Virus record (IMG/VR): IMGVR_UViG_2606217106_000005 | Coordinates: 1-11,921 of that record | Length of the DNA stretch: 11,921 nt | Direction: 5' to 3' (one strand) | DNA from: a virus | Lineage: Duplodnaviria > Heunggongvirae > Uroviricota > Caudoviricetes | Shown: positions 1 to 11,921 of the stretch, piece after piece | Numbering within the stretch: position 1 is the first letter of the stretch | How the letters are laid out: every line of letters starts with the position of its first letter | Made by a program: the position numbers and the translations under genes | The notes under the pieces: generated by a model | What the model was told of the DNA's origin: nothing | Databases searched by the model: none | Seen by the model: the letters and a program-made list of their open reading frames with translations, nothing else

Positions 1-60
1 CCTTCTTATTCATAAGGCGGGACACTTTCAGGATTTTGAATTTATTCAATTTTTTCCTTT

Positions 61-92
61 CTCCAAAATCTCTCCAAAACTTTTCCCCAAAA
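61..92. repeat. Three phased direct repeats CTCCAAAA (61-68), CTCCAAAA (72-79), CCCCAAAA (85-92) just beyond the int stop; candidate integrase arm-type sites
   Basis: Read directly; spacing 11 and 13 bp. In lambda attL the P' arm with three arm-type Int sites lies next to the int 3' end; the assignment here is by analogy only. Confidence 0.3.
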
Positions 93-156
93 CCAGGGCA
101 CGCATTTTACAACACTTTTTTCCTGAAATGGTGACGGATATTCCATATGATGTTTG

Positions 157-1275
157 TTAAATAACCAACTTAACCCATTCCTGACCTCGGGTATCGTTAT
201 AGCGATCGGTGGTAGCCTGGACTTTATGTCCCAGTAATGTTTTTGTATCGACACCCTGTGCGCGGTACAACCGTTCTGACAGGGAGCGTTGTTCATGAAA
301 TGTTGGCGGTGTTTTTCCTGCTGGTGGAATTATTCCAGCCAGATCTCGCGCTTTGGCGAAGTAATCGCTCAGGTTGTCTTTACTCATCGGTTTTGGTTGT
401 TTCTGGTGCCTACTATGGATTAGATATGGACTTAATATTCTGTCTCGGCACCCATCAATAACTTCTTTTAACGTTATCCCAATGGCATCACAGCGTAGTG
501 TAAGCGGTAACGCCAGGCGCATTCCGGTTTTTCCCTGGGTGATATGCAAGTGTTCGTTCCACACATCTGAAAAACGCATGTGGCAAATGTCATCACGGCG
601 CTGACCAGTAACAATCGCAAGAAGCATTGCGTTACGGATAAAGTGTTTTTCAGGCGTTGCGTTGTAAATTTTTTGCCAGTCTTCCAGGGTGAGTCTGGCT
701 CTGGTTACTTTAGGGATCGGTTTACGGGTAGCCTCCGGAGGATTCCATCCAGGAGGAACTTCTCCTGCATGCTGTGCTTCTTTATAAATATCAACCCATA
801 ATCCACGATTTACTCTCGCTGTGCTGACCATGTCTTTATCCAGCCAATCATCCAGTATTAATGCAAAGTCTCTTACTTCCAGTTCTTTCAATGGATGGTT
901 TCCCAGACGGGAAACCAGGTATGCAGCCATTCGGGCTTTTTCTTTGTGAGTTGTAGCTGCAATATCTCCATTTTTCAGTCGCGTGTCCTGTATTTTCAGA
1001 TATCGATCAACCCATGCCTTTAATCTGATACCCCGACGTTTTGTTGCTGACGGACTTTCATCAATTTTGCGCATGAAATATTCAGCTTCTGCTGCAGCTA
1101 TTCGCTGATTGGCTGTGGAAGCGATTTTTTCTGCCTTACCTTTGTCTGTTCCGAGTCCGTGAAATTTTCCAGTCACAGGATTTTTATACTGGTAGTAAAC
1201 TCTGCCAGTTCTGCGATCAAACTTTTCGTAAAGACCGGCTACGTCAGTGCTGTTTTTTCGTGGCCTCGGTGACAT
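157..1275 (-). CDS. int: Phage tyrosine integrase, lambda Int family
   Basis: 372-aa ORF. C-terminal motifs PPTFHEQRSLSERLY and LLGHKVQATTDRYNDTRGQEW align with the lambda Int catalytic HxxR box and the nucleophile Tyr region (DPPTFHELRSLSARLY / LLGHKSDTMASQYRDDRGREW). Start overlaps the 3' end of the xis-like gene, as in lambda. Confidence 0.93.
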   Translation of the reverse strand: MSPRPRKNSTDVAGLYEKFDRRTGRVYYQYKNPVTGKFHGLGTDKGKAEKIASTANQRIAAAEAEYFMRKIDESPSATKRRGIRLKAWVDRYLKIQDTRLKNGDIAATTHKEKARMAAYLVSRLGNHPLKELEVRDFALILDDWLDKDMVSTARVNRGLWVDIYKEAQHAGEVPPGWNPPEATRKPIPKVTRARLTLEDWQKIYNATPEKHFIRNAMLLAIVTGQRRDDICHMRFSDVWNEHLHITQGKTGMRLALPLTLRCDAIGITLKEVIDGCRDRILSPYLIHSRHQKQPKPMSKDNLSDYFAKARDLAGIIPPAGKTPPTFHEQRSLSERLYRAQGVDTKTLLGHKVQATTDRYNDTRGQEWVKLVI

Positions 1276-1522
1276 GAGTTAAAATCTCCTTCAGTGCATC
1301 ATCATCGCCAGTATGAATTTCCGGCGCAATTCCCGTTTCACCAGGCCCAACAAATACTGCTCGGCGATCTATCAGCCAACGCCCACGAATTTTTTGTGGC
1401 CTTGGAACGATGTATCCTAGTTTTCCGTATTTCACCAGGGTAGTGTTTGTTATTGGGAGACTGAACCGTTTTGGTTTCCACTCGTCGAGCGTTATCAGGT
1501 ACTGTTCGCTCATGGCTATCAC
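1244..1522 (-). CDS. xis: Excisionase, lambda Xis-like
   Basis: 92-aa ORF directly upstream of int and overlapping it by 32 bp. Motif YLITLDEW...GRWLI resembles lambda Xis YLTLQEW...REYLF. True start may be the internal Met (MSEQYL, codon at 1511-1513). Confidence 0.75.
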   Translation of the reverse strand: MIAMSEQYLITLDEWKPKRFSLPITNTTLVKYGKLGYIVPRPQKIRGRWLIDRRAVFVGPGETGIAPEIHTGDDDALKEILTHVTEATKKQH

Positions 1523-1574
1523 TCCGGAACGCGCCAGTTGCAGAATATCAACGACAACTGGCGACGGTTGAACA

Positions 1575-4046
1575 TTAAAAATCAGCCTGACTCGGGATCA
1601 GTTTTTGCCAGATAACTGAAACGTATTTTGCCTGGTAACGGGCGTCATCAAGTGCATTATGGCGCTCACCTTCGAATGGAATAGCCGTTCTGGCATCGAA
1701 GTCTATGGCTTTCCCCAGCTCAACGATTGTGCGTACATCGCGATCGTTGTAGTAACGCCACGGGCAGGGGATCCCCTGCCGTTCGTATGAACGGCGCAAA
1801 ATCGTGTTGTCGAAGTTGGCTCCATTTCCCCAGACCTGAACAAAAAATTCACCGGAGTTTTCGTCGATAAATTCCCGCAATTGTAACAGTGCATCATCTA
1901 ACGGGATTTCATCGGTCATAATGGCAGATTGCGCTTCGCGTGATTGCTTAAGCCACCATTTAATGGTGTCCCGATCAATGACTCCGCCAGCAGTTTCCAG
2001 ATCGATAGTCTTACTAAATTCCGGTCCCATATCTCCGGTTTGCGGATCGAAAAATATTGCACCTATTGAGATGATCGGGGCATCAGGATTTTTTCCCATG
2101 GTTTCAAGGTCGATCATTAGATGGTCACACGTCCTGCTGGTGGATGTGATTTCTTGATGACCGTTCACCTTAATTGAGTGATCTGCCGTCTCGCCAGTTT
2201 CATTATCGCTATCGTGATGCTGATTGCCGCCAGTGTTCTCTTTGTGTGGATGTTCAGCGCCTTCCATTTCCTCCGGATCATCTTCCTGAACTTCAACCTG
2301 ATACTCTTCATCGAATGTTTCCTGGTATGTTGCGTCGCCCATCACCGCGCCACAATCAGGGCAGTTGCCGCCGCCGGTCTGACCGCAGGCGGTGCAGATC
2401 TTTTCCGGTTCCTGTTGCACTACTGGTTCAGGTTGTTTCGTTTCTGGCTCGTTTTGTTGCGTACTTGGGCTGTTTTGTTCCGCTTTCTGGTCGTTCTGTT
2501 CCGTTTCTTGCTGGTTCTGGTTCACAGAATCGCGGGTCTGGATCCCATTAACCCATTTCGGATCATTCGGGTCGCTAATCCCTTCAACAAATTCACCACG
2601 TGATACTGCAAGCAGTTCATCGGCGTCAGGCTGGCTGATATTGGCTGCCTGCATAATTTTGTTTACTTCGTCAGCGGTAACTTTTACTGACCCTGGTTGT
2701 GCGGTCGTGTCAGATGCACCAGTATTTTGTTGTGAACCTGAGTATGTACCGTTTTTGCGGGCGAAATATTCTTCTTTCGTGATTTCAGTAGCCCCAGCAG
2801 ACAGCGCCTTATCCAGACCAGAAAGTTTGTTTGCGCGACCGTATTTTTCGCCATCCTTGTCGGTGAAGAGGAAGTAGAACGGCCCCTCACGTTCTACAGA
2901 TGGTTCGACTTCCACTTTGCATTCGGTTTTTTCGTTGTCTGGAATTGCCGTTTCCACTGCATCAGTTTCTGGTACTGGCGACGAGAGAGTATCAGTTGCG
3001 CTCTGATTTGTTCCTTCATCTTCAAACACGCCCTTTGTAGTCAGGTATTCAGTAATGTATTTGTTCAGTGCCACAGGGTCTTTGTGAATGTCGATCGGAC
3101 GTTCACGGACAAGGCCAAAAATAGTCTGGCGGTCGTAGCGAAGGGCATCAGGCTGTTTGCGCATTGATGCCGAGATACGCTTCCAGTCTTCGCGGTCGTT
3201 GTCGATAACTTCATTTTTTGCCCAGCGATGGATGCTGCCGTCAATGTTTCCGGCATCCACATCACCAGGCCAGAGAGCGTAGGCCAGTTCGTCATCCAGT
3301 GTTTTCCATGTCTGCTTGTATTCGCGATGAATGGCAGCAATGACCGGGCTGATTTTTCCTGTTGAATTTTCAGTGTGCTGTTGATTGGTTCTGGCGCGGG
3401 CGAGATCAACAACAGACGTGTATTTTCCGGTTTCCTTGCGTTCACCTTCGCGACGTTTTTTCCAGATGCGCATCTCTGCCTGAATTTCGGGCCATTTGGC
3501 ACCAGGCTTACATTTATGCTTAACGCACCCGATGGCATGCAGCTTAAGCTCCGGATACATGGCGTTAACTTCTGGCATTTTCATCAACGCTTCAACGATA
3601 TGTCCGTCGAATGTTGCCATGTCTTCCTGCAACAATTCCTGTGCGTTAATAACCATATCAACGGTGATGTTTTCACATGTGTCGAACTTAACCATGAGAG
3701 CGTTCTGTACTTCAGGGGCCAGCTTGTCAAAAGTGACGTTCATCAGATCGGATTCAGTCTCAACCGGGACAAAAGAAGCAGAATCCTCATCCCAGCGGTT
3801 TTCCTGCATATATTCAGCATCCCATGAATCGAGGGCAGGGCGGGGTATGCCAGGTTTATCCTCGCAGATAATAAATTTATAAGCGCAGTCCTGAGCAGCC
3901 GGATAATGTTCCAGGAACTGCCAGTGAAATTTTGCTCGAGCACGGCGTTCGTCGCCAGCTTCAATGGCTGTGGCTACAGCCACAGCGCCTTCTTCCCTTG
4001 TTGCCAGTTCGTCAGGAATGGCGGCGCAAATAAAGACTTTACTCAT
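1575..4046 (-). CDS. Large phage exonuclease with C-terminal DEDDh (DnaQ-like) 3'-5' exonuclease domain, Cys4 zinc ribbon and acidic low-complexity linker
   Basis: 823-aa ORF with GAGG SD. C-terminal motifs MIDLETMG (Exo I, D-x-E), GNGANFDNTIL (Exo II), HNALDDARYQ (Exo III, H...D) are visible. CTACGQTGGGNCPDCG is a C-x2-C-x8-C-x2-C ribbon. Sits where lambdoid phages carry exo/recombination genes; I recall similar proteins annotated exodeoxyribonuclease VIII-like, but cannot verify. Confidence 0.8.
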   Translation of the reverse strand: MSKVFICAAIPDELATREEGAVAVATAIEAGDERRARAKFHWQFLEHYPAAQDCAYKFIICEDKPGIPRPALDSWDAEYMQENRWDEDSASFVPVETESDLMNVTFDKLAPEVQNALMVKFDTCENITVDMVINAQELLQEDMATFDGHIVEALMKMPEVNAMYPELKLHAIGCVKHKCKPGAKWPEIQAEMRIWKKRREGERKETGKYTSVVDLARARTNQQHTENSTGKISPVIAAIHREYKQTWKTLDDELAYALWPGDVDAGNIDGSIHRWAKNEVIDNDREDWKRISASMRKQPDALRYDRQTIFGLVRERPIDIHKDPVALNKYITEYLTTKGVFEDEGTNQSATDTLSSPVPETDAVETAIPDNEKTECKVEVEPSVEREGPFYFLFTDKDGEKYGRANKLSGLDKALSAGATEITKEEYFARKNGTYSGSQQNTGASDTTAQPGSVKVTADEVNKIMQAANISQPDADELLAVSRGEFVEGISDPNDPKWVNGIQTRDSVNQNQQETEQNDQKAEQNSPSTQQNEPETKQPEPVVQQEPEKICTACGQTGGGNCPDCGAVMGDATYQETFDEEYQVEVQEDDPEEMEGAEHPHKENTGGNQHHDSDNETGETADHSIKVNGHQEITSTSRTCDHLMIDLETMGKNPDAPIISIGAIFFDPQTGDMGPEFSKTIDLETAGGVIDRDTIKWWLKQSREAQSAIMTDEIPLDDALLQLREFIDENSGEFFVQVWGNGANFDNTILRRSYERQGIPCPWRYYNDRDVRTIVELGKAIDFDARTAIPFEGERHNALDDARYQAKYVSVIWQKLIPSQADF

Positions 4047-4139
4047 TTTGTTTTAACCTCATGACAGATTTAAGGATGAACAAATCCCTGCCATTGCTGG
4101 CATATAAGAATGAAACCGGATATTTATTACGGAACTGTT

Positions 4140-4331
4140 TTAAAGACCTGCCGGGATTTCGATATTATCCTGGTGAATAACTTTATCGACCGGGTAACAG
4201 TTACCGGGAATTTTCTGTTCGGTTGCTGCAGTCATACACTCCTGCATTGTCCTGTGAACACTGACTGCAATATCAACTGGCTCTCCGGAAACAAGAAAAA
4301 CTGTCAGAACAAGTGCAAATGCTGTATTCAT
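4140..4331 (-). CDS. Small hypothetical protein (63 aa) with hydrophobic signal/TM-like N-terminus
   Basis: Start ATG overlaps the stop of the upstream small ORF (ATGA, translational coupling). N-terminus MNTAFALVLTVFLVSG is hydrophobic. Located in the early-left region where lambda has kil/cIII-type small genes. Confidence 0.5.
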   Translation of the reverse strand: MNTAFALVLTVFLVSGEPVDIAVSVHRTMQECMTAATEQKIPGNCYPVDKVIHQDNIEIPAGL

Positions 4332-4516
4332 TGCCAGCATCCTTTTTGTATCGGACGTAAACGGGCCAACATTGAAAGAATGCATATTTTATTTAATAGC
4401 TCCCGTTCGTGTTTTCTCTTGTTAATGGCATCTTCAGTAAATACAGGGTTACTGATAGTGACACCAATTTCAAAACAACCTTCAGACGTATTAACGTTTG
4501 GTAATAACGTTTTCAT
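4328..4516 (-). CDS. Small hypothetical protein (62 aa)
   Basis: Internal Met chosen over the 97-aa ORF-track start because it is preceded by GAGGG 7 nt upstream; stop overlaps the next gene start. Confidence 0.45.
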   Translation of the reverse strand: MKTLLPNVNTSEGCFEIGVTISNPVFTEDAINKRKHERELLNKICILSMLARLRPIQKGCWQ

Positions 4517-5005
4517 TATCGCGCCCTCAACAATGAGTTTTGTGATGCGGTGCCTGGTGCCTCCAGGTGACGTTAACCAGTTAACAATTAACGCCGGATA
4601 CAGAGAATCCAACCATAACACTGTTTTTGGTTTTAACTGTTCCGCGTGCGCTTAGCCGCATTCACCGCATCACAAAATTCACTTTAAAAAGGGCGGCAGA
4701 GCAGTCACGGAGTAAAACTGATACCGCCAAACGTCACCAGAAAATTGATAACAGAGGGCGTTGCAGCGGGGTTGTCACTTAAGCGTATGGTCAACCTGAC
4801 AACCCGGTGTCCTCAACGGGGGAAGGAATACCCCCGCCATACTTACCGCCGCGCCATTTCGCGGATTGCCACAACCAGAAGCGCACGGTCGAAGAAATTT
4901 AACGACAAGACTTATATGCAAAGGGATCTCGCCGTGCGCTTTCGTGTTATGCCCTGACTTTTCAGGGTAAATTAACCTGTGGAAACCTGTTTTTACTGGC
5001 GCTAA

Positions 5006-5245
5006 TCAGTTAGCGTTTCTGGCTAACCAGCGATGCGCGGCAGCTTCGGTTTTAAACGTTTTACTTTTGGTATACGTCATCGCGGTAAACGTGCCGTCCT
5101 GATTGGGAAACACGCCACATACCAGAGATTCGTTGTTGCCAAGCTCGATAGTATCCATGCTGACCTCATTTCCCCTTAACGCTGGGGTAGCGGAACTAAA
5201 AACCTGCTGCGCTGTTATACAAAGTGTTCCCGCCGTCATGTTCAT
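5006..5245 (-). CDS. Hypothetical first gene of the early-left operon (79 aa)
   Basis: First ORF downstream of the predicted leftward promoter; GAGG upstream of the MNM start cluster; no family recognised. Confidence 0.5.
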   Translation of the reverse strand: MNMTAGTLCITAQQVFSSATPALRGNEVSMDTIELGNNESLVCGVFPNQDGTFTAMTYTKSKTFKTEAAAHRWLARNAN

Positions 5246-5339
5246 ACGCCTCGGGCTGGCTACTTAATCCCTGACCACTGCCGGGTAACTCTAGGTATTG
5301 CCCTGTATTGTGTGGGACGGGATGGGTTGGTATGGGAAA

Positions 5340-5408
5340 ACTATAGGAAATGCCTAATTGCTTGTCAATAGGCTATGCCTAATGATTTGGGTGCGACCTA
5401 ATAGGTGA
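5340..5408 (-). promoter_or_regulatory. P_L-like early-left promoter with three operator sites (O_L)
   Basis: Minus-strand TTGACA (plus coords 5363-5368), 17-bp spacer, TATAGT (plus coords 5340-5345). Operator-like sites TAGG-N5-CCTA (5343-5355), TAGGC-tat-GCCTA (5369-5381) and CCTAATAGG (5397-5405), centres about 26 bp apart. Confidence 0.6.
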
Positions 5409-5476
5409 TGGTTTGTGGGAGAGGTAGTAGGAGTTAACTAACGGGAACTAGGAATTTCCCGTCGGACCATATAAGT

Positions 5477-5953
5477 TTAAGTTCCTGTCTTGGTGATGTT
5501 CTGGCTTTTCCGTTTTGATTCTTGATTTTTCAGATAGTTAGCTACCTTCATTTCCATTGCGGCAATGTAGGCGCGAACGTCATGATCAACCCAACTAGGC
5601 TCCGTAGCATTTCCAGATAAGAGGAAAGCCACAATTGCTCTTTTTTCATCAGAGGCGGCTTGATAAAGGCTGTTTATGTCTAAAAGTTCACTTTTTGTAT
5701 CTGAAGTGGATGGGGTTGGTATGGGGTATTCGTTAAGCCCCCAATGCTCTGGACCAACCACATCAGAAAAGAAACGCCATAGTTCTGGAAGTTTGTCTTT
5801 ACTTATCGAACCTTTCTTAATCCAGTCATGGATTGATGGTGGTTGGACTTTGAAATGACGTGCGATTTCCGCCTTTGATTTGACGGCTCCTGATGCAATT
5901 TTTTTGTTGATGGCCTGCTCTATCGCTCGGCCTAAGTCTTTACCACTAAGCAT
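5477..5953 (-). CDS. racR: Prophage repressor, RacR-like HTH protein
   Basis: 158-aa ORF between outward-facing promoters. HTH-like segment SKAEIARHFKVQPPSIHDWIKKGS. Length and N-terminus match my recollection of E. coli Rac prophage RacR; followed divergently by ydaS/ydaT-like genes, as in Rac. Confidence 0.8.
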   Translation of the reverse strand: MLSGKDLGRAIEQAINKKIASGAVKSKAEIARHFKVQPPSIHDWIKKGSISKDKLPELWRFFSDVVGPEHWGLNEYPIPTPSTSDTKSELLDINSLYQAASDEKRAIVAFLLSGNATEPSWVDHDVRAYIAAMEMKVANYLKNQESKRKSQNITKTGT

Positions 5954-5981
5954 TGCTTAATAGTCTCCTATGCGCATCGCG

Positions 5982-6050
5982 TTAGGCAATCCCTACTCTC
6001 GAAGCGTTAGGCATAGCCTATTGACAATCGCATTAGGCTAAGCCTAATAT
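5982..6050 (+). promoter_or_regulatory. P_R-like early-right promoter with three operator sites (O_R), including a perfect 17-bp palindrome
   Basis: TTGACA at 6021-6026, 18-bp spacer, TAATAT at 6045-6050. Perfect palindrome ATTAGGCTAAGCCTAAT at 6032-6048 overlaps spacer and -10; TTAGGC-ata-GCCTA at 6007-6020; TTAGGC half-site at 5982-5987. Confidence 0.65.
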
Positions 6051-6077
6051 TATTGTGTGTTTTTTGGAGTTCATTCG

Positions 6078-6401
6078 ATGAAAAAAGATAACTATTCATT
6101 CAAACGAGCTTGTGCTGTTGTCGGTGGGCAATCAGCAATGGCTAGGCTTTTAGGTGTATCTCCTCCAAGCGTAAATCAATGGATCAAAGGTGTACGTCAG
6201 TTGCCTGCTGAGAGATGTCCTGCGATTGAACGAGCAACAAAAGGTGGTGTCCTGTGTGAAGAACTTCGTCCTGATGTTGATTGGACATACTTACGACGCT
6301 CGTCATGTTATTCGCAGAATATGTCGATGAAGCAACCAAATGACGAAAACGATCATACCCGAAGCATCAAGAGGCAAATGATTCATGAAAATCAAACATG
6401 A
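6078..6401 (+). CDS. ydaS: Cro-like HTH protein, YdaS-like
   Basis: ATG at 6078 preceded by GGAG (6066-6069). Motif GGQSAMARLLGVSPPSVNQWIKGVRQLPAERCPAIERAT is typical of YdaS/Cro-like proteins. First gene after P_R. Confidence 0.8.
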   Translation: MKKDNYSFKRACAVVGGQSAMARLLGVSPPSVNQWIKGVRQLPAERCPAIERATKGGVLCEELRPDVDWTYLRRSSCYSQNMSMKQPNDENDHTRSIKRQMIHENQT

Positions 6402-6810
6402 GCACATCCGCATGGCGATGAATGCCTGGGCATATCCTGATGGTGAGAAAGTTCCAGCAGCTGGAATAACCCAGGCTTATTTTGAGTTGGGTATGACGTT
6501 CCCAGAACTGTATGACGACAGCCATCCGGAAGCCCTGGCTCGCAATACCCAGAAAATTTTCCGCTGGGTAGAGAAAGACACCCCTGATGCAGTTGAAAAA
6601 ATTCAGGCGTTGTTACCAGCGATCGAAAAGGCAATGCCACCTTTGCTGGTGGCCAGAATGCGCAGCCACAGTTCAGCTTATTTTCGGGAGCTGGTGGAGA
6701 CGCGGGAACGACTGGTGAGAGACGCTGATGATTTTGTCGCAGTGGCGATCGCTGGTTTCAACCAGATGAATCGTGGTGGCCCTGCAGGAAATATTGTGGC
6801 TGTGCATTGA
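6385..6810 (+). CDS. ydaT: YdaT-like protein, putative toxic partner of YdaS
   Basis: 141-aa ORF overlapping the ydaS stop by 17 bp; GAGG SD; same position and size as Rac prophage ydaT. Confidence 0.7.
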   Translation: MKIKHEHIRMAMNAWAYPDGEKVPAAGITQAYFELGMTFPELYDDSHPEALARNTQKIFRWVEKDTPDAVEKIQALLPAIEKAMPPLLVARMRSHSSAYFRELVETRERLVRDADDFVAVAIAGFNQMNRGGPAGNIVAVH

Positions 6811-6881
6811 CTCGCAATATTCATACCGGATCACTTCCGGCAATTTGTGAGTAAAAAGATTCGGTATCAAAAGAGGTGAGT

Positions 6882-7952
6882 ATGGCTAACGCCTGGCTCA
6901 GATTATGGCATGACATGCCAAATGACCCTAAGTGGCGAACAATTGCCAGGGTGTCAGGGCAGCCAATTGCAACAGTGATGGCAGTGTATATCCACCTCCT
7001 GGTGAGCGCGTCACGAAATGTCACGCGAGGTCACATTGATGTCACGACAGAAGATTTGGCAAGTGCGCTCGACGTGACAGAAGAGGTAATTGATTCAATT
7101 TTGCAGACGATGCAGGGGCGGGTACTTGATGGTGATTTAATCACTGGATGGGAAAAACGCCAGGTGCTTAAAGAGGACAACGGCAATATTTCGCAAACCG
7201 CAAAATCTCCTGCAGAGCGCAAGAGGGCGCAGCGAGAGAGGGAAAGAAAGCGGGAACAAAATGGCGATTGTCACGGCGCGTCACGAAATGTCACGCACAT
7301 GTCACGACGAGTCACGACAGATAAAGATACAGATAAAGATACAGATCAAGAAGATCAAAACACTATGGTCCATGGCGTAAAAAACGCCACGAACCAGGCA
7401 GGGGATGTTCAGACCGTCAATCTTGGTCAGCCAGCAGGCACGACACCGGAAGCCGATTCAGCGTATGCGCTGAAAGCCGATTCGGGCGCTGTGCAGCAGG
7501 TGATGACCGCAAGGCCGGAGCAATCACACCAACTGCAGCAGCCCGAAGCCGATTCCGCCATTCAGCGGGAAGCCGATCGGGTAGTCCCGGAAAACACCGG
7601 GCAGTCTGTGGGACGAGTGGATTATCCGGATGTGTTCGAACAGGTCTGGCGGGAGTACCCGTTGCGTGCTGGGGCAAACCCGAAGAAATCCGCTTTCAGT
7701 GCCTGGAAGGCCAGATTACGCGAGGGGGTGCCACCAGAGGCCATGCTGGATGGCGTGAGGCGTTACGCAAGATACTTGGCGGCTACCGGGAAAACGGGAA
7801 CGGAATTTGTTCAGCGAGCGACGACGTTTTTTGGACCGGACCGGAATTTTGAAAACCCCTGGTTGCTCCCGGTAAGCGGCACGAACAACCAGCGTTGTGT
7901 TAATCATATTTCTGAACCGGACACCGAAATTCCGCCGGGATTCAGAGGGTAA
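6882..7952 (+). CDS. Phage replication initiation protein (replisome organizer, O-like) containing the putative origin
   Basis: ATG at 6882 with GAGG SD. N-terminus AWLRLWHDMPNDPKWRTIARVSGQPIATVMAVYIHLL resembles phage replisome-organizer N-domains. C-terminal FEQVWREYPLRAGANPKKSAFSAWKAR...WLLP resembles the conserved C-domain of phage replication proteins. Iteron clusters lie inside the gene. Confidence 0.75.
   Translation: MANAWLRLWHDMPNDPKWRTIARVSGQPIATVMAVYIHLLVSASRNVTRGHIDVTTEDLASALDVTEEVIDSILQTMQGRVLDGDLITGWEKRQVLKEDNGNISQTAKSPAERKRAQRERERKREQNGDCHGASRNVTHMSRRVTTDKDTDKDTDQEDQNTMVHGVKNATNQAGDVQTVNLGQPAGTTPEADSAYALKADSGAVQQVMTARPEQSHQLQQPEADSAIQREADRVVPENTGQSVGRVDYPDVFEQVWREYPLRAGANPKKSAFSAWKARLREGVPPEAMLDGVRRYARYLAATGKTGTEFVQRATTFFGPDRNFENPWLLPVSGTNNQRCVNHISEPDTEIPPGFRG
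7006..7050 (+). repeat. Iteron cluster 1: four TCAC(G) repeats at one-helical-turn spacing
   Basis: TCACG at 7011, 7021, 7042 and TCACA at 7031; inverted copy CGTGAC at 7073-7078; a 21-bp block GCGCGTCACGAAATGTCACGC is repeated exactly at 7276-7296. Confidence 0.6.
7271..7342 (+). repeat. Iteron cluster 2 (five TCACG repeats) followed by a 12-bp tandem duplication AGATAAAGATAC x2
   Basis: TCACG at 7271, 7281, 7291, 7302, 7312 (spacing 10-11 bp); tandem 12-mers at 7319-7330 and 7331-7342, then degenerate AGATCAAG copies; A/T-rich flank consistent with a DNA-unwinding element. Confidence 0.6.
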
Positions 7953-7989
7953 CAGATTTCAGGTCATGGGGTAATTTTCAGGAGGGCTT

Positions 7990-8412
7990 GTGGCAAAAGT
8001 TTTTACACAAGAAGAGCGGGAAAAAATTAAAGGGCAGGTTGTTGAACTCGTACGCCAGAGTGGGCGCGAGACGTTACGACAACTGGAAACTAAAACTGGG
8101 GCAACAAGATATCTGATGAGCGTTCTGGCCAGAGAGCTGGTTGCCAGTGGCGATGTATACAATTCTGGCTACGGGTTATTCCCGTCTGAACAGGCTCGTA
8201 AAGACTGGCAAAATGCCCGCAAAAAACTCTCAAGGGCAAAGCTGAAGAAACCATCTGCGGTTGATCCGGACCTTATCTGGTCATTACCAGATGGCGAAAT
8301 ACGCCGCTACGACAGGCGTCTGAACATAATCTGTCTCGAGTGCCGGAAGAGCGAAGTTATGCAGCGCGTACTGGCGTTTTATCAGGGGAATTTTGAGGAG
8401 GTGGTGCGGTGA
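7990..8412 (+). CDS. Hypothetical protein (140 aa), first gene of a translationally coupled trio
   Basis: GTG start with GGAGGG SD (7981-7986); stop overlaps the next start (GTGA). Confidence 0.55.
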   Translation: MAKVFTQEEREKIKGQVVELVRQSGRETLRQLETKTGATRYLMSVLARELVASGDVYNSGYGLFPSEQARKDWQNARKKLSRAKLKKPSAVDPDLIWSLPDGEIRRYDRRLNIICLECRKSEVMQRVLAFYQGNFEEVVR

Positions 8413-8663
8413 GTGAATCAAAATGCCAGGTTAATGGCAACAAGATAGAACCATGTGCAGCACTGGCAAAGTCCCTTGAGCATGATGCTGAATACACGAT
8501 GCGAAAAGGTCTGCTGATATACAAAATCTGGAATGAGAGTTTAACTCGCGGTCCTGATTTTGTGATGTTGCGTTCCGGTGAATTTTCTAAATTACCAGTT
8601 CGGGTTTCATTTTGTCCGTTCTGTGGTGAAAGTCTGAAAACGTGGGAGAACAGAAATGAATGA
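8409..8663 (+). CDS. Hypothetical small Cys4 protein (84 aa), possible zinc ribbon
   Basis: GTG start after GAGGAGG; cysteines in CQVNGNKIEPC and CPFCGES suggest a metal-binding ribbon; overlaps both neighbours. Confidence 0.5.
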   Translation: MSESKCQVNGNKIEPCAALAKSLEHDAEYTMRKGLLIYKIWNESLTRGPDFVMLRSGEFSKLPVRVSFCPFCGESLKTWENRNE

Positions 8664-8967
8664 AATTAAAGAAATACCAGTAGTACGTGATGAATATGGC
8701 TGCTGGACGCATCCTGAATATGAAAAATTCTGTGACGGTCGGGAATATATTTCAACGGAAGAGTTTAACGCCTGGATGGAGGAAAATAATCTTCAATACG
8801 TCCTCTGCTTCAGAGATGAAGGATGTGCTGACCTTGATGCGTGTGATGCTGATATTTCTGCATGGGAACCGGAACGACCAGAGGGCAATGGATGGTTTAT
8901 TGGTTCAATACATGACACCGAAGATGGCCCGGTTTGTGTATGGCTGAGAAATAAGGCCGAAGCATAA
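8656..8967 (+). CDS. Hypothetical acidic Cys-rich protein (103 aa)
   Basis: ATG overlapping the upstream stop (ATGAATGA); GGGAGA SD; six cysteines; no family recognised. Confidence 0.55.
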   Translation: MNEIKEIPVVRDEYGCWTHPEYEKFCDGREYISTEEFNAWMEENNLQYVLCFRDEGCADLDACDADISAWEPERPEGNGWFIGSIHDTEDGPVCVWLRNKAEA

Positions 8968-9272
8968 AGGCTATAAACCGACTAACAACTAAATACTGAA
9001 GATTTAAATCAGAAACGATTTTTATTAAATCCTTAACCGGAGGGATTCTGCACCCTCAGAACATCAGGAGGCCGTCTGAAAGGGCGGAACAGATAATGCT
9101 TACGTTGAAACATTTTATCGACATACCAACATGGTTAGCCGTCATTGCTTTTGTTAAAATACACATCCACTTTTCTGTGCAATGTTTAACCACTGGTCAT
9201 ATCAAATGGCATTCATGCGAACCATGATATAGAATCATGGCTTGAGAGAGTCGATGAAAGCGCAACTATGGT

Positions 9273-9851
9273 ATGAGAGACATTGATGTAAGAAAGGCTG
9301 TGCATGCCAAGATTCTGAGAGATCATCATAAAGATCCTGACACCCTAATCATTGATGAGTTTACGATGAATCTAGGGGCTAGCAGAGCTGATATAGCAGT
9401 GATCAATGGGCTTATACATGGTTATGAGTTGAAGAGCAAGAGTGATAACTTGCTCAGATTACCAGCGCAGGTGCAACATTACTCATCAGTGATGGATAAA
9501 GTAACTTTGGTTGTCTCTGATTGCCATCTTTATGATGCTTTAAGCATAGTTCCATCATGGTGGGGGATAAAGCAAGTTACGCAAGGTGCACGGCAAGGTA
9601 TCCATTTAAAAACAATTCGAACTAGCAAGTTGAATCCACAAGTGGACAAACTTTCCTTAACAATGCTTCTTTGGAAAGATGAATTGCTTTCCCTATTAAG
9701 TGATGTAGGGGAGCTACAGAATTTGAAAAATAAACCTAAACGCGTCTTATGGTCAAAACTCGCCAATAGTATGGATGTTGGCGAGCTTCGTGAAGCTGTT
9801 CGAGTTAAACTTAAAGCCCGTAAAGAGTGGCGAGTTGCTCAACAACCTTAG
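9273..9851 (+). CDS. PD-(D/E)XK-type nuclease-fold protein (192 aa), sce7726-like by recollection
   Basis: Motif arrangement IIDEF (E29) ... RADIAVING (D40) ... GYELKSK (E52-x-K54) matches the restriction-endonuclease-like core. Putative extended -10 (TGaTATAGA, 9225-9233) upstream. Confidence 0.7.
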   Translation: MRDIDVRKAVHAKILRDHHKDPDTLIIDEFTMNLGASRADIAVINGLIHGYELKSKSDNLLRLPAQVQHYSSVMDKVTLVVSDCHLYDALSIVPSWWGIKQVTQGARQGIHLKTIRTSKLNPQVDKLSLTMLLWKDELLSLLSDVGELQNLKNKPKRVLWSKLANSMDVGELREAVRVKLKARKEWRVAQQP

Positions 9852-10908
9852 TTATGTGATGGTTTTGCCCAATCCTACGCCATACCTCTGGGCTACCAAA
9901 TTTATAGTTACCAGAGGGATTGGCTTTGTAGGCTTGATACTCGTTTGCATAATATTCTATGTCTCTATCTCCCGCACAGAATGTAGGCCCTGAATATTCT
10001 CGATGAGCAAGAATATCCTCACTATGTTTACCATATTGTTCATAACCAAAGCGATTAGCTACTCTTCCTCGAAATACCCAAAAGTCATTATCTCCAGAGT
10101 ATCTGACGCTGGCAGATACGCTAGGGAATCGCGTCGAAAGCCTATTAAAGTCGGGGTGCTGTACTCCATAATCACTATAAATCACATTTCTGGCAAGTTC
10201 TTTTCTATTCATTAAACTCTGCCATAAAATCCACTCGATTCGAGGTTGAGAATATAGACCAACAGAAATATCACTGAGATCTGTAGGAAATGAACCCCCA
10301 GAAAGAATCACTTTTCTGTATTCATTGAGGTGCGCCAGATTGTTTATCAATCCCATTGCCAAAGTATATAGTTCGCCGGAATTAATTTTATCCTCGGTTA
10401 ACTCATCTCTTAAGTCAATAATTATATCAATATTTGATAAAGGAATTCCCAGATGATTAATGTAATGCGTTATTAATTGTGGGTTAACCAGATCTAACGT
10501 GGTTAATCTCAAGCATATTTCATTCTGCATTAATTCATCAATCGCTCTTTTATAGTTAGATGGGCGAGTTGGTGAACTGACAGGAATAACTCTTATCCCC
10601 ATATCTCTAACTTGATTAACCGCATTTATTATAGGGTAATGATCTTCAGGAGAAATAAAATGCTCTTCAATTAATAATCCATCAATATAAACACCTTGCA
10701 TATCTGAGCAAGATTTTGAGACTTTCTTTCCGAACTCTATAAGAGTCTCGTTATAACTCTTTAAGGCAATACCTGAATCAGGGTCAATTGGCACTGGTTC
10801 AATTTCGAGTAATGGCAAAATTTTTGATTTCTTTTCAATGGATAGCTGCGATAAAGCTGATAACTCAGAACGTTTCGCTTTCAGAATAGGAATATATGAA
10901 ATTGTCAT
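9811..10908 (-). CDS. Beta-protein / sce7725-like family protein (365 aa), function unknown
   Basis: Long ORF with AAGG SD 8 nt upstream of ATG. N-terminal MTISYIPILKAKRSELSAL matches my memory of the conserved start of this family. No Walker or other catalytic motifs recognised. 3' end overlaps the convergent 192-aa gene by 41 bp. Confidence 0.7.
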   Translation of the reverse strand: MTISYIPILKAKRSELSALSQLSIEKKSKILPLLEIEPVPIDPDSGIALKSYNETLIEFGKKVSKSCSDMQGVYIDGLLIEEHFISPEDHYPIINAVNQVRDMGIRVIPVSSPTRPSNYKRAIDELMQNEICLRLTTLDLVNPQLITHYINHLGIPLSNIDIIIDLRDELTEDKINSGELYTLAMGLINNLAHLNEYRKVILSGGSFPTDLSDISVGLYSQPRIEWILWQSLMNRKELARNVIYSDYGVQHPDFNRLSTRFPSVSASVRYSGDNDFWVFRGRVANRFGYEQYGKHSEDILAHREYSGPTFCAGDRDIEYYANEYQAYKANPSGNYKFGSPEVWRRIGQNHHITKVVEQLATLYGL

Positions 10909-11339
10909 GTTAATACCTTATACAGAATCAATTAACAATTAATGGTTCTTCGGACATTGAAATTTATATCGCAAAAATTGGCAAACTCTCCTCGACTACT
11001 CACTTGTGGGTATCCTGGCGTAAAAGGAATGACTTGGCAATACCCGGTGTGATCATAAGTCATTGAAAATGATCATTTTTATCAGTCTTTCTTCCATGAT
11101 GAATGCTAATGCCATTTGATTTGTTGAGGTGAAAACTGTTAAAAATCAAAACGATGTAATTGAAATGAACGTTCGGTAGCATTCACGCTTTAAATGTTTC
11201 TTTTGTGCTGATTGGATGAATTTGGGTCACTTCTGATGAGAGATGTTGCAGGAAAAGAAGTTGGCATTGATCTATTGGATAGTTAGAATTACTGCGGGTG
11301 CTTGAGGCTATCTGCCTCAGGCATGAACACCAAAAGGCA

Positions 11340-11420
11340 GATAGAGAAAAGCCCCAGTTAACATTACGCGTCCGGCAAGACGCTTAACATTAATCTGAGG
11401 CCAATTTCATGCTTTGCACA
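11340..11420 (-). ncRNA. Candidate Sok-like antisense RNA of the hok locus (approximate)
   Basis: Inferred only from the canonical hok/sok organisation (antisense RNA opposite the hok mRNA leader/mok start); no clear promoter or terminator could be pinned down by eye. Confidence 0.25.
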
Positions 11421-11465
11421 TGTAGGTTAGCCTCTTACGTGCCGAAAGGCAAGGAGAAGCAGGCT

Positions 11466-11621
11466 ATGAAGCAGCAAAAGGCGATGTTAATCGCCCTGAT
11501 CGTCATCTGTTTAACCGTCATAGTGACGGCACTGGTAACGAGGAAAGACCTCTGCGAGGTACGAATCCGAACCGGCCAGACGGAGGTCGCTGTCTTCACA
11601 GCTTACGAACCTGAGGAGTAA
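11466..11621 (+). CDS. hokD: Hok-family type I toxin (HokD/RelF-like), 51 aa
   Basis: Translation MKQQKAMLIALIVICLTVIVTALVTRKDLCEVRIRTGQTEVAVFTAYEPEE has the Hok signature (single TM helix, LTRK..LCE.R) and matches my recollection of E. coli RelF/HokD. GGAG SD; in-frame upstream ATG at 11409 gives a 70-aa mok-like extension. A 9-bp inverted repeat (11308-11316 / 11336-11344) lies in the leader. Confidence 0.85.
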   Translation: MKQQKAMLIALIVICLTVIVTALVTRKDLCEVRIRTGQTEVAVFTAYEPEE

Positions 11622-11921
11622 GAGACCAGGCGGGGGAGAATCCCATAAGCGCTAACTTAAGGGTTGAACCATCTGAAGAATGCGACGCCTCGGTGCCTCG
11701 TTAAGACGATGCCTCGCGTTCTTCAATTGCGTTTTGTAGGCTGTCAGGGATACTGTCCCACGAATGGCCACCTGTAAGCTCCAGATGACCATTTTTGTTA
11801 TTCTCCACAACGAGTTAGTTCTTCTTTTCGGATCCGGCACTTCTGGGGGGGGAATCCAGCGATGGCTGGATTATGTCGTCAATTAAAAATGCGGCGAGTA
11901 GATTAGCAAATATCCACGCTT

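Follow-up and report, generated by a model that had tools for sequence, protein, structure and literature searches.

Two anti-phage systems described to date lie closest to the locus reported here. The gop-beta-cII locus of P4 confers resistance to lambda and P1 (PMC9122126), and orf184, an accessory gene of a phage, sets off cell death by way of this locus (bioRxiv 10.1101/2023.04.06.535777). According to PMC9122126, gop is toxic when beta is missing, beta neutralises gop, and the region is non-essential (with Ghisotti 1990 as cited there). In P4, gop and beta occupy the same strand, cII converges on beta, and the labels given in RefSeq are 'beta family' and 'sce7726 family'. The second system, PD-lambda-2, is classed as toxin-antitoxin-like (PMC9519451); its HigB-like component A neutralises a toxic Xre-M78 peptidase, component B, and a beta-like component C is required for defence (PMC9519451, Vassallo et al. 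2022). Here we analyse a stretch of 11,921 nucleotides (IMG/VR virus record IMGVR_UViG_2606217106_000005, positions 1 to 11,921), hereafter the window, which is part of a Rac/Qin-type lambdoid prophage of Escherichia coli and carries a convergent pair made of a predicted nuclease gene of the sce7726/cII family and a beta gene. Judging from gene content, this two-gene cassette is most likely the minimal, toxin-less core that is common to the P4 gop-beta-cII family and most PD-lambda-2-type loci.

The features on which this comparison is based are the following:

Positions 9088 to 11280, no strand: cargo (moron-like) segment of 2193 bp with 37.8% G+C, containing the two-gene cassette; boundaries set by BLASTN.
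Positions 9273 to 9851, plus strand: sce7726 / Phage_P4_cII family protein of 192 amino acids; PD-(D/E)XK fold over approximately residues 1-116, followed by a C-terminal helical domain.
Positions 9811 to 10908, minus strand: Beta-family protein of 365 amino acids; (beta/alpha)8 TIM barrel followed by a C-terminal helical bundle.
Positions 9811 to 9851, no strand: tail-to-tail overlap of 41 bp in which both proteins are coded, from the open reading frame listing.

These open reading frames, their convergence and their overlap had been pointed out in a preliminary description made from the letters of the window, which regarded the pair as recurrent and as uncharacterised. The latter view needs to be qualified, as homologous beta and cII proteins belong to the validated P4 locus and beta is component C of PD-lambda-2.

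The 365-residue protein is a member of the Pfam family Beta_protein (PF14350; E-value 3.8e-52, 178 bits against a cut-off of 27). It matches the PADLOC model for component C of PD-lambda-2 (PD-Lambda-2_C, PDLC03983) over residues 4-362 with 1.8e-41 and 140 bits, while reaching only 18 bits on the PADLOC 'beta' model; it also matches phrog_9159, and its alignment with P4 beta spans the whole protein at 23% identity (E-value 1e-8). Of the label 'Beta-protein/sce7725-like' that had been attached to it, the first half is therefore borne out by the family score. Membership of sce7725 was rejected, since the protein scores 12.3 bits on that model (NF033831) against a cut-off of 60, over the N-terminal 35 residues only, and six other beta proteins, one of them from Sorangium, gave no match to it. 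Residues K12, E15, D76, R115, R134, D165, R223, D246, R269, R344 and H351 are invariant in beta, and the invariant polar residues are mostly located at the C-terminal ends of the barrel strands. The active sites of TIM-barrel enzymes are found at these ends, and because the invariant residues sit where such active sites lie, beta looks like an enzyme.

The 192-residue protein scores 191.1 bits on the NCBIfam model sce7726 (NF033832; cut-off of 70) over residues 1-184, matches the PADLOC model 'cll' (2.4e-28) and phrog_984, and is 28% identical to P4 cII (E-value 2e-17); its homologues carry a precomputed assignment to Pfam PF26915 (Phage_P4_cII). On alignment with 55 homologues, including P4 cII, residues E29, R38, D40, E52 and K54 were found to be invariant. 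The protein combines a restriction-endonuclease-like alpha/beta core with a D...(D/E)xK motif and an upstream E, as in the PD-(D/E)XK superfamily, and the fold assignment is confident; the D40/E52/K54 motif noticed at the outset is thus conserved throughout the family. The C-terminal helical domain could bind DNA. For both the sce7726/cII and the Beta families, no relative of solved structure was detectable by sequence. The profile searches with the two proteins led to relatives that belong to validated anti-phage systems.

The likeness to P4 gop-beta-cII therefore extends from the two homologous proteins (beta, PF14350; cII, sce7726/PF26915) to their arrangement, with cII convergent on beta, and to their status as non-essential cargo of a mobile element. 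The window, however, has no gop, which in P4 encodes a small membrane toxin directly upstream of beta. A tblastn search with P4 gop against the window and ~150 loci returned only P4 itself, and in the clade of the window no open reading frame upstream of beta is conserved across genera. A gop remnant upstream of beta was considered and rejected, as tblastn and PADLOC searches of the small open reading frames in 10932-11182 (10932-11063 and 11060-11182) were negative and neither frame has a counterpart in other genera. Further differences lie in the nuclease, which has 192 residues in the window as against 264 in P4 cII; in the 3' ends, which overlap by 41 bp here and are separated in P4 by a gap of 27 bp with a terminator; and in the host element, a slot in a lambdoid prophage as compared with the cos-proximal hotspot of P4.

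With PD-lambda-2 the window shares component C, nearly at full length. Components A (HigB-like) and B (Xre helix-turn-helix plus M78 peptidase) are absent; for contrast, component A is recognised at 9.6e-41 in locus L021. The published definition of PD-lambda-2, unlike the cassette, includes no nuclease. A survey seeded with the nuclease (one genome per species; 448 loci found, of which the best 80 were kept) showed PD-lambda-2 component B directly upstream of beta in 13 of these best 80 loci, usually preceded by A, and at other loci different helix-turn-helix-M78 or S24 proteins occupy the place upstream of beta. When loci were instead collected with component B, all four that were sampled (L145-L148) had the order HigB, M78 peptidase, beta, with cII convergent. 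Additionally, in a metagenome sample (L151-L230) a convergent nuclease was found in 37 of the 49 loci having B, beta and room downstream. Approximately three quarters of PD-lambda-2-type loci thus have a convergent nuclease as a fourth gene, which is omitted from the published three-gene definition and was not found described in our literature searches. Where it is missing in this sample, beta is in some cases followed by a gene for a different predicted nuclease (pP_pnuc twice, PIN_8 once) or for an FRG-domain protein, and such alternative predicted nucleases would be in keeping with an effector position at this place. The published PD-lambda-2 clone stops 396 bp beyond gene C, which would cut off the fourth gene if ECOR42 has one; the E. 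coli PD-lambda-2 protein was not among the homologues listed, and the plasmid and phage collections searched contained no enterobacterial example of PD-lambda-2.

The pairing of the two genes is near-obligate. The best 80 loci of the nuclease-seeded survey span Proteobacteria, Firmicutes, Actinobacteria, Acidobacteria, Chloroflexi, the candidate phyla radiation and Melainabacteria, and beta lies immediately downstream on the opposite strand, that is, convergent, in 77 of them, which agrees with the co-conservation that had been expected. Two of the three exceptions fall at contig ends and one, L012, is truly without beta. Conversely, in viral contigs collected with beta, a convergent nuclease is found beside every intact beta that has room downstream. 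The locus L012 (Xenorhabdus koppenhoeferi, 6001-6567) alone combines an intact sce7726 gene and room downstream with the lack of a beta gene; a tblastn search of the next 2.8 kb with the closest beta returned nothing.

The manner in which the two genes meet is similarly constrained. Within the 41-bp overlap of the window, the conserved nuclease residues K181, R183 and W186 and the tail of that protein are coded opposite beta residues 353-365, and the beta strand codes there for the conserved L359 and L362, the C-terminal helix and the stop codon. Amongst 94 non-identical pairs, 91 overlap, by 11-158 bp with a median of 44, and in a count that was repeated independently the length of the overlap was 2 mod 3 in all 91; the same phase was seen in 37 of 37 further metagenomic pairs. 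The only pairs to depart from this phase are non-overlapping ones, namely P4 (gap of 27), L013 (gap of 39) and L014 (gap of 14). The two alternative antisense phases are not closed by stop codons (mean open lengths of 30-48 nucleotides), and therefore codon statistics do not force the phase that is observed. The phase of an overlap cannot be changed by shifts of the stop codon or by in-frame insertions and deletions. The simplest reading of these alignments is that the overlap is ancestral and that the nuclease and beta would have been inherited as an unbroken unit. The convergent, overlapping layout had been considered unusual for a two-gene cassette; it is instead the ancestral architecture of the whole family, with convergence retained in P4 as well. 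Our literature searches did not find the invariant overlap phase or the near-obligate pairing across phyla described, nor did they find a mechanistic paper on the pair.

Both genes are under purifying selection, with ratios of nonsynonymous to synonymous differences per site (pN/pS) of 0.23-0.36 at saturated synonymous sites, and the pairwise identities of nuclease and beta are correlated (Pearson 0.80). Beta diverges faster, its mean identity being 31% as compared to 43% for the nuclease. Amongst near-identical E. coli and viral copies (L087-L116), 19 nonsynonymous and 7 synonymous differences were counted in beta and 1 and 9 in the nuclease; these counts, which are small and not independent, hint at relaxed or diversifying selection on beta. 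Considering the selection and the two intact reading frames, the possibility that the cassette is a decayed remnant was ruled out.

The cassette is a facultative insert of its prophage. In BLASTN comparisons with two cassette-less prophages (L149 and L150) having both flanks in common with the window, homology stops at 9087 and restarts at 11277-11284, and in both of them genes for DUF4014/DUF551 proteins occupy the slot. The cargo segment delimited in the preliminary description (8970-11200) is hence real, with slightly narrower limits, at ~9088-11280, and its foreign composition, illustrated there by 13 of 60 G+C at 10381-10440 and 38 of 60 at 7441-7500, was reproduced exactly. The cassette has 37.8% G+C as against 47.6% for the remainder of the window, and G+C at third codon positions is 0.36 and 0.30 in its two genes as against 0.38-0.54 in other prophage genes. 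The region 8900-11300 is 100% identical to the chromosome of a Shiga toxin-producing E. coli (NZ_CP027355) and 99.6% identical to phage Rac-SA53. On searching 5426 complete E. coli genomes, the cassette was found in 93 (coverage of at least 80%), in copies that are 99-100% identical, and its flanks were found in thousands. No flanking repeats or other insertion signature were found at its boundaries.

The bare pair, with no partner gene, recurs in several genera of Enterobacterales. A second subtype in E. coli (L084-L086) encodes proteins of 206 and 355 amino acids with an overlap of 59 bp, the nuclease being ~53% identical to that of the window, and it occupies another slot, between the Rz-type lysis genes and the terminase gene Nu1 of other lambdoid prophages. 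Elsewhere, and away from any phage context, many phyla have the pair in their chromosomes, plasmids or satellites, and the genes near it are mostly those of mobile elements and in some cases defence genes (integrases, P4-type primases, resolvase, HsdR/ResIII, BrxL).

A role in defence or abortive infection, as put forward in the preliminary description, is what can best be inferred for the cassette, because its closest relatives belong to validated anti-phage systems (PMC9122126, PMC9519451). The defence genes and mobile-element genes in its neighbourhood, the recurrence of the two-gene form and the second prophage slot are consistent with such a role. More specifically, we see an even chance that the cassette is a self-contained, autonomous two-gene anti-phage module, acting through superinfection exclusion or abortive infection, in which the nuclease would be the effector and beta the sensor or regulator. 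The sce7726/cII-like protein would then be a metal-dependent PD-(D/E)XK nuclease that carries out the effector step, and the enzyme-like, faster-evolving TIM barrel of beta would sense infection or a phage protein and either restrain or license the nuclease. Since the genes converge and have their last 41 bp in common, their transcripts are complementary at the 3' ends; the overlap may couple the expression or dosage of the pair, whether by transcriptional interference or by antisense pairing, and it would also make the inheritance of one gene alone difficult.

Some observations weigh against this reading. Amongst the cII-bearing relatives, phenotypes are on record only for the three-gene locus of P4. 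The proteins that are toxic in the characterised relatives, gop of P4 and the Xre-M78 peptidase (component B) of PD-lambda-2, are both absent here. We know of no report that cII/sce7726 cuts nucleic acid or is toxic. Twelve of the 49 PD-lambda-2-type loci with B, beta and room downstream do without the nuclease, and the clone ending 396 bp past gene C implies that beta can contribute to defence when this nuclease is lacking, at any rate in the PD-lambda-2 context. Scans for consensus promoters and terminators gave results not above chance, with no intrinsic terminator near the overlap.

The same absence of toxin genes can be taken to mean that the cassette is an incomplete system, in which the pair is a sensor or regulator sub-module in need of a separate toxin (gop-like, or HigB with Xre-M78 peptidase) and is either inert alone or served by an effector encoded elsewhere. 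It is in keeping with this that the toxic genes of both characterised relatives are precisely those missing from the window, and that PD-lambda-2 A/B directly precede beta in 13 of the best 80 loci, with other helix-turn-helix-M78/S24 proteins elsewhere. Nevertheless, the toxin-less form is maintained intact and under purifying selection across several genera, its copies in 93 E. coli genomes are 99-100% identical, it has spread independently to a second prophage slot, and no third gene is conserved in the flanks of the window clade; we consider an incomplete system unlikely.

The pair may also be seen as an addiction or stabilisation module, with the nuclease as toxin and beta as antitoxin, whose main purpose is to keep the prophage or island in place and not defence against phages. 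The relatives are indeed toxin-antitoxin-like, as beta neutralises gop and PD-lambda-2 is classed accordingly; the pair is carried by mobile elements, in the window with a hok/sok locus adjoining, and overlapping convergent genes hinder the loss of one partner. However, the relatives confer measurable protection against phages and cII/sce7726 has no reported toxicity, which make retention as its main purpose improbable, although stabilisation and defence are compatible roles. It is still less probable that the pair is restriction-modification-like, with the TIM-barrel enzyme beta modifying nucleic acid or otherwise marking self and the PD-(D/E)XK protein restricting unmodified DNA: the nuclease fold and the enzyme-like barrel would suit such a division of labour, but beta shows no similarity to methyltransferases and no methyltransferase, as known from type II restriction-modification, is encoded in the cassette. 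A phage-regulatory or housekeeping role, in lysogeny control or recombination rather than in conflict between phages, is suggested by the P4 gene name cII, by the 'regulatory protein' labels on some homologues and by a C-terminal helical domain which could bind DNA, and is the least probable of all, given that the P4 region is non-essential according to PMC9122126, that the cassette is facultative and absent from most related prophages, and that the pair also resides outside a phage context in many phyla.

Returning to the autonomous module, a broader version of it can be proposed tentatively, and we hold it to be possible though rather doubtful. In this version, the convergent, phase-locked beta/cII pair would be an ancestral, autonomous immune module whose dosage is coupled by its antisense 3' ends, and gop and the HigB/Xre-peptidase pair would be later add-ons; the published systems would then have been defined around their accessory toxins, and the definition of PD-lambda-2 would have missed its nuclease. 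More radically still, beta might modify nucleic acid chemically, in which case the pair would operate as a restriction-modification system of a new type.

The regions flanking the two genes within the cargo segment contain the following features:

Positions 9088 to 9272, plus strand: region upstream of the nuclease gene, with one sigma-70-like site, ATGGCA-18-TAGAAT, at 9206-9235.
Positions 9198 to 9213, plus strand: 16-nucleotide motif CATATCAAATGGCATT upstream of the nuclease gene; inverted repeat I3, 15/16 match.
Positions 10909 to 11280, minus strand: AT-rich region upstream of beta (35.5% G+C), with no conserved small open reading frame and no gop-like gene.
Positions 11108 to 11123, minus strand: second copy of the 16-nucleotide motif, CAAATCAAATGGCATT on the beta strand, ~200 nucleotides upstream of beta.

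The sigma-70-like site is situated 38 nucleotides before the ATG of the nuclease gene and is a candidate promoter, the number of such sites in the region being not above chance; a Shine-Dalgarno-like AAGG is found 7-10 nucleotides before the ATG of beta. The two copies of the 16-nucleotide motif have the same orientation relative to the gene that each precedes, and their match exceeds those in 30 of 30 shuffles. No equivalent of the motif was found in the cassettes of other genera, and for this reason a shared operator of the whole family was rejected; the pair of motifs may be a regulatory site shared by the two genes in this lineage, or it may be due to chance. In Rac-SA53, an IS1 element (L002, 6218-6983) lies in the left intergenic region of the cassette, at a place equivalent to window ~9108-9115. 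This place is ~160 bp 5' of the start of the nuclease gene and also precedes the candidate promoter, and the insertion may change expression of the gene in that phage.

The cassette is located between the small early genes and replication block on its left and a hok/sok locus on its right, as had been described for it. The latter, a complete type I toxin-antitoxin locus at 11296-11621, directly follows the right boundary of the cassette; the sok RNA is recognised by Rfam at 11296-11471 (120 bits) and the mok/hok reading frame extends over 11409-11621. Homology to Rac-SA53 ends at 11644, and the rest up to 11921 matches the end of the IS4-like element IS421 in many E. coli records, so that, just past hok, the window seems to enter an insertion sequence (11642-11921). 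To the left, the DicF antisense RNA at 4691-4742 on the minus strand (Rfam RF00039, 76.7 bits) is a marker of the dicB region, with its cell-division inhibitor, of a Qin/Rac-type prophage. In the replication region, a reading frame of 358 amino acids (6876-7952, plus strand) contains the stretch of 58-60% G+C, especially 7350-7800, that is the maximum of the window; its organisation differs from that of the otherwise identical prophage in the Shiga toxin-producing strain, where an IS3 and separate genes of DnaT-like and P-like type are found at this place. Additionally, an 'exonuclease' reading frame of 823 amino acids (1575-4046, minus strand) has a C-terminal exonuclease-like domain and a Cys-rich motif in addition to a long middle section of low complexity that is acidic and rich in Q, E and T, and is of unusually large size for an exonuclease of the lambdoid early region.

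Current tools define gop-beta-cII and PD-lambda-2 around their toxin-like genes, whereas the gene that the two systems share is beta, which is usually locked tail to tail with a PD-(D/E)XK nuclease gene. If the pair works alone, it would be the simplest experimental handle on the family, consisting of two genes in 2.2 kb that are native to lambdoid prophages of E. coli; the DefenseFinder and PADLOC rules would need revision, as a locus without gop or without A/B would not be called by them, and a TIM-barrel protein would join the short list of defence sensors and regulators. Irrespective of function, the constancy of the overlap phase illustrates neatly that an overlap between convergent genes can preserve a record of their never having been separated.

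Comparison with more distant systems helps to delimit the family further. The 192-residue protein has its core fold and E...D...ExK constellation in common with the MmcB-like, Can2-Card1, NucS and type II restriction endonuclease groups; no link to any solved structure is detectable by sequence. The cassette has no CARF/SAVED sensor domain, and the partner of its nuclease is a TIM barrel and not a methyltransferase. Type II toxin-antitoxin and restriction-modification cassettes with convergent, 3'-overlapping genes likewise consist of two small genes of mobile DNA placed tail to tail, each of which probably controls the expression of the other, but they include a helix-turn-helix antitoxin or a methyltransferase, neither of which is present in the cassette of the window. 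In relation to P4 gop-beta-cII and PD-lambda-2, the family and its validated relatives were known already; what is new is the toxin-less two-gene form, the phase-locked overlap and the nuclease that has been overlooked in PD-lambda-2-type loci.

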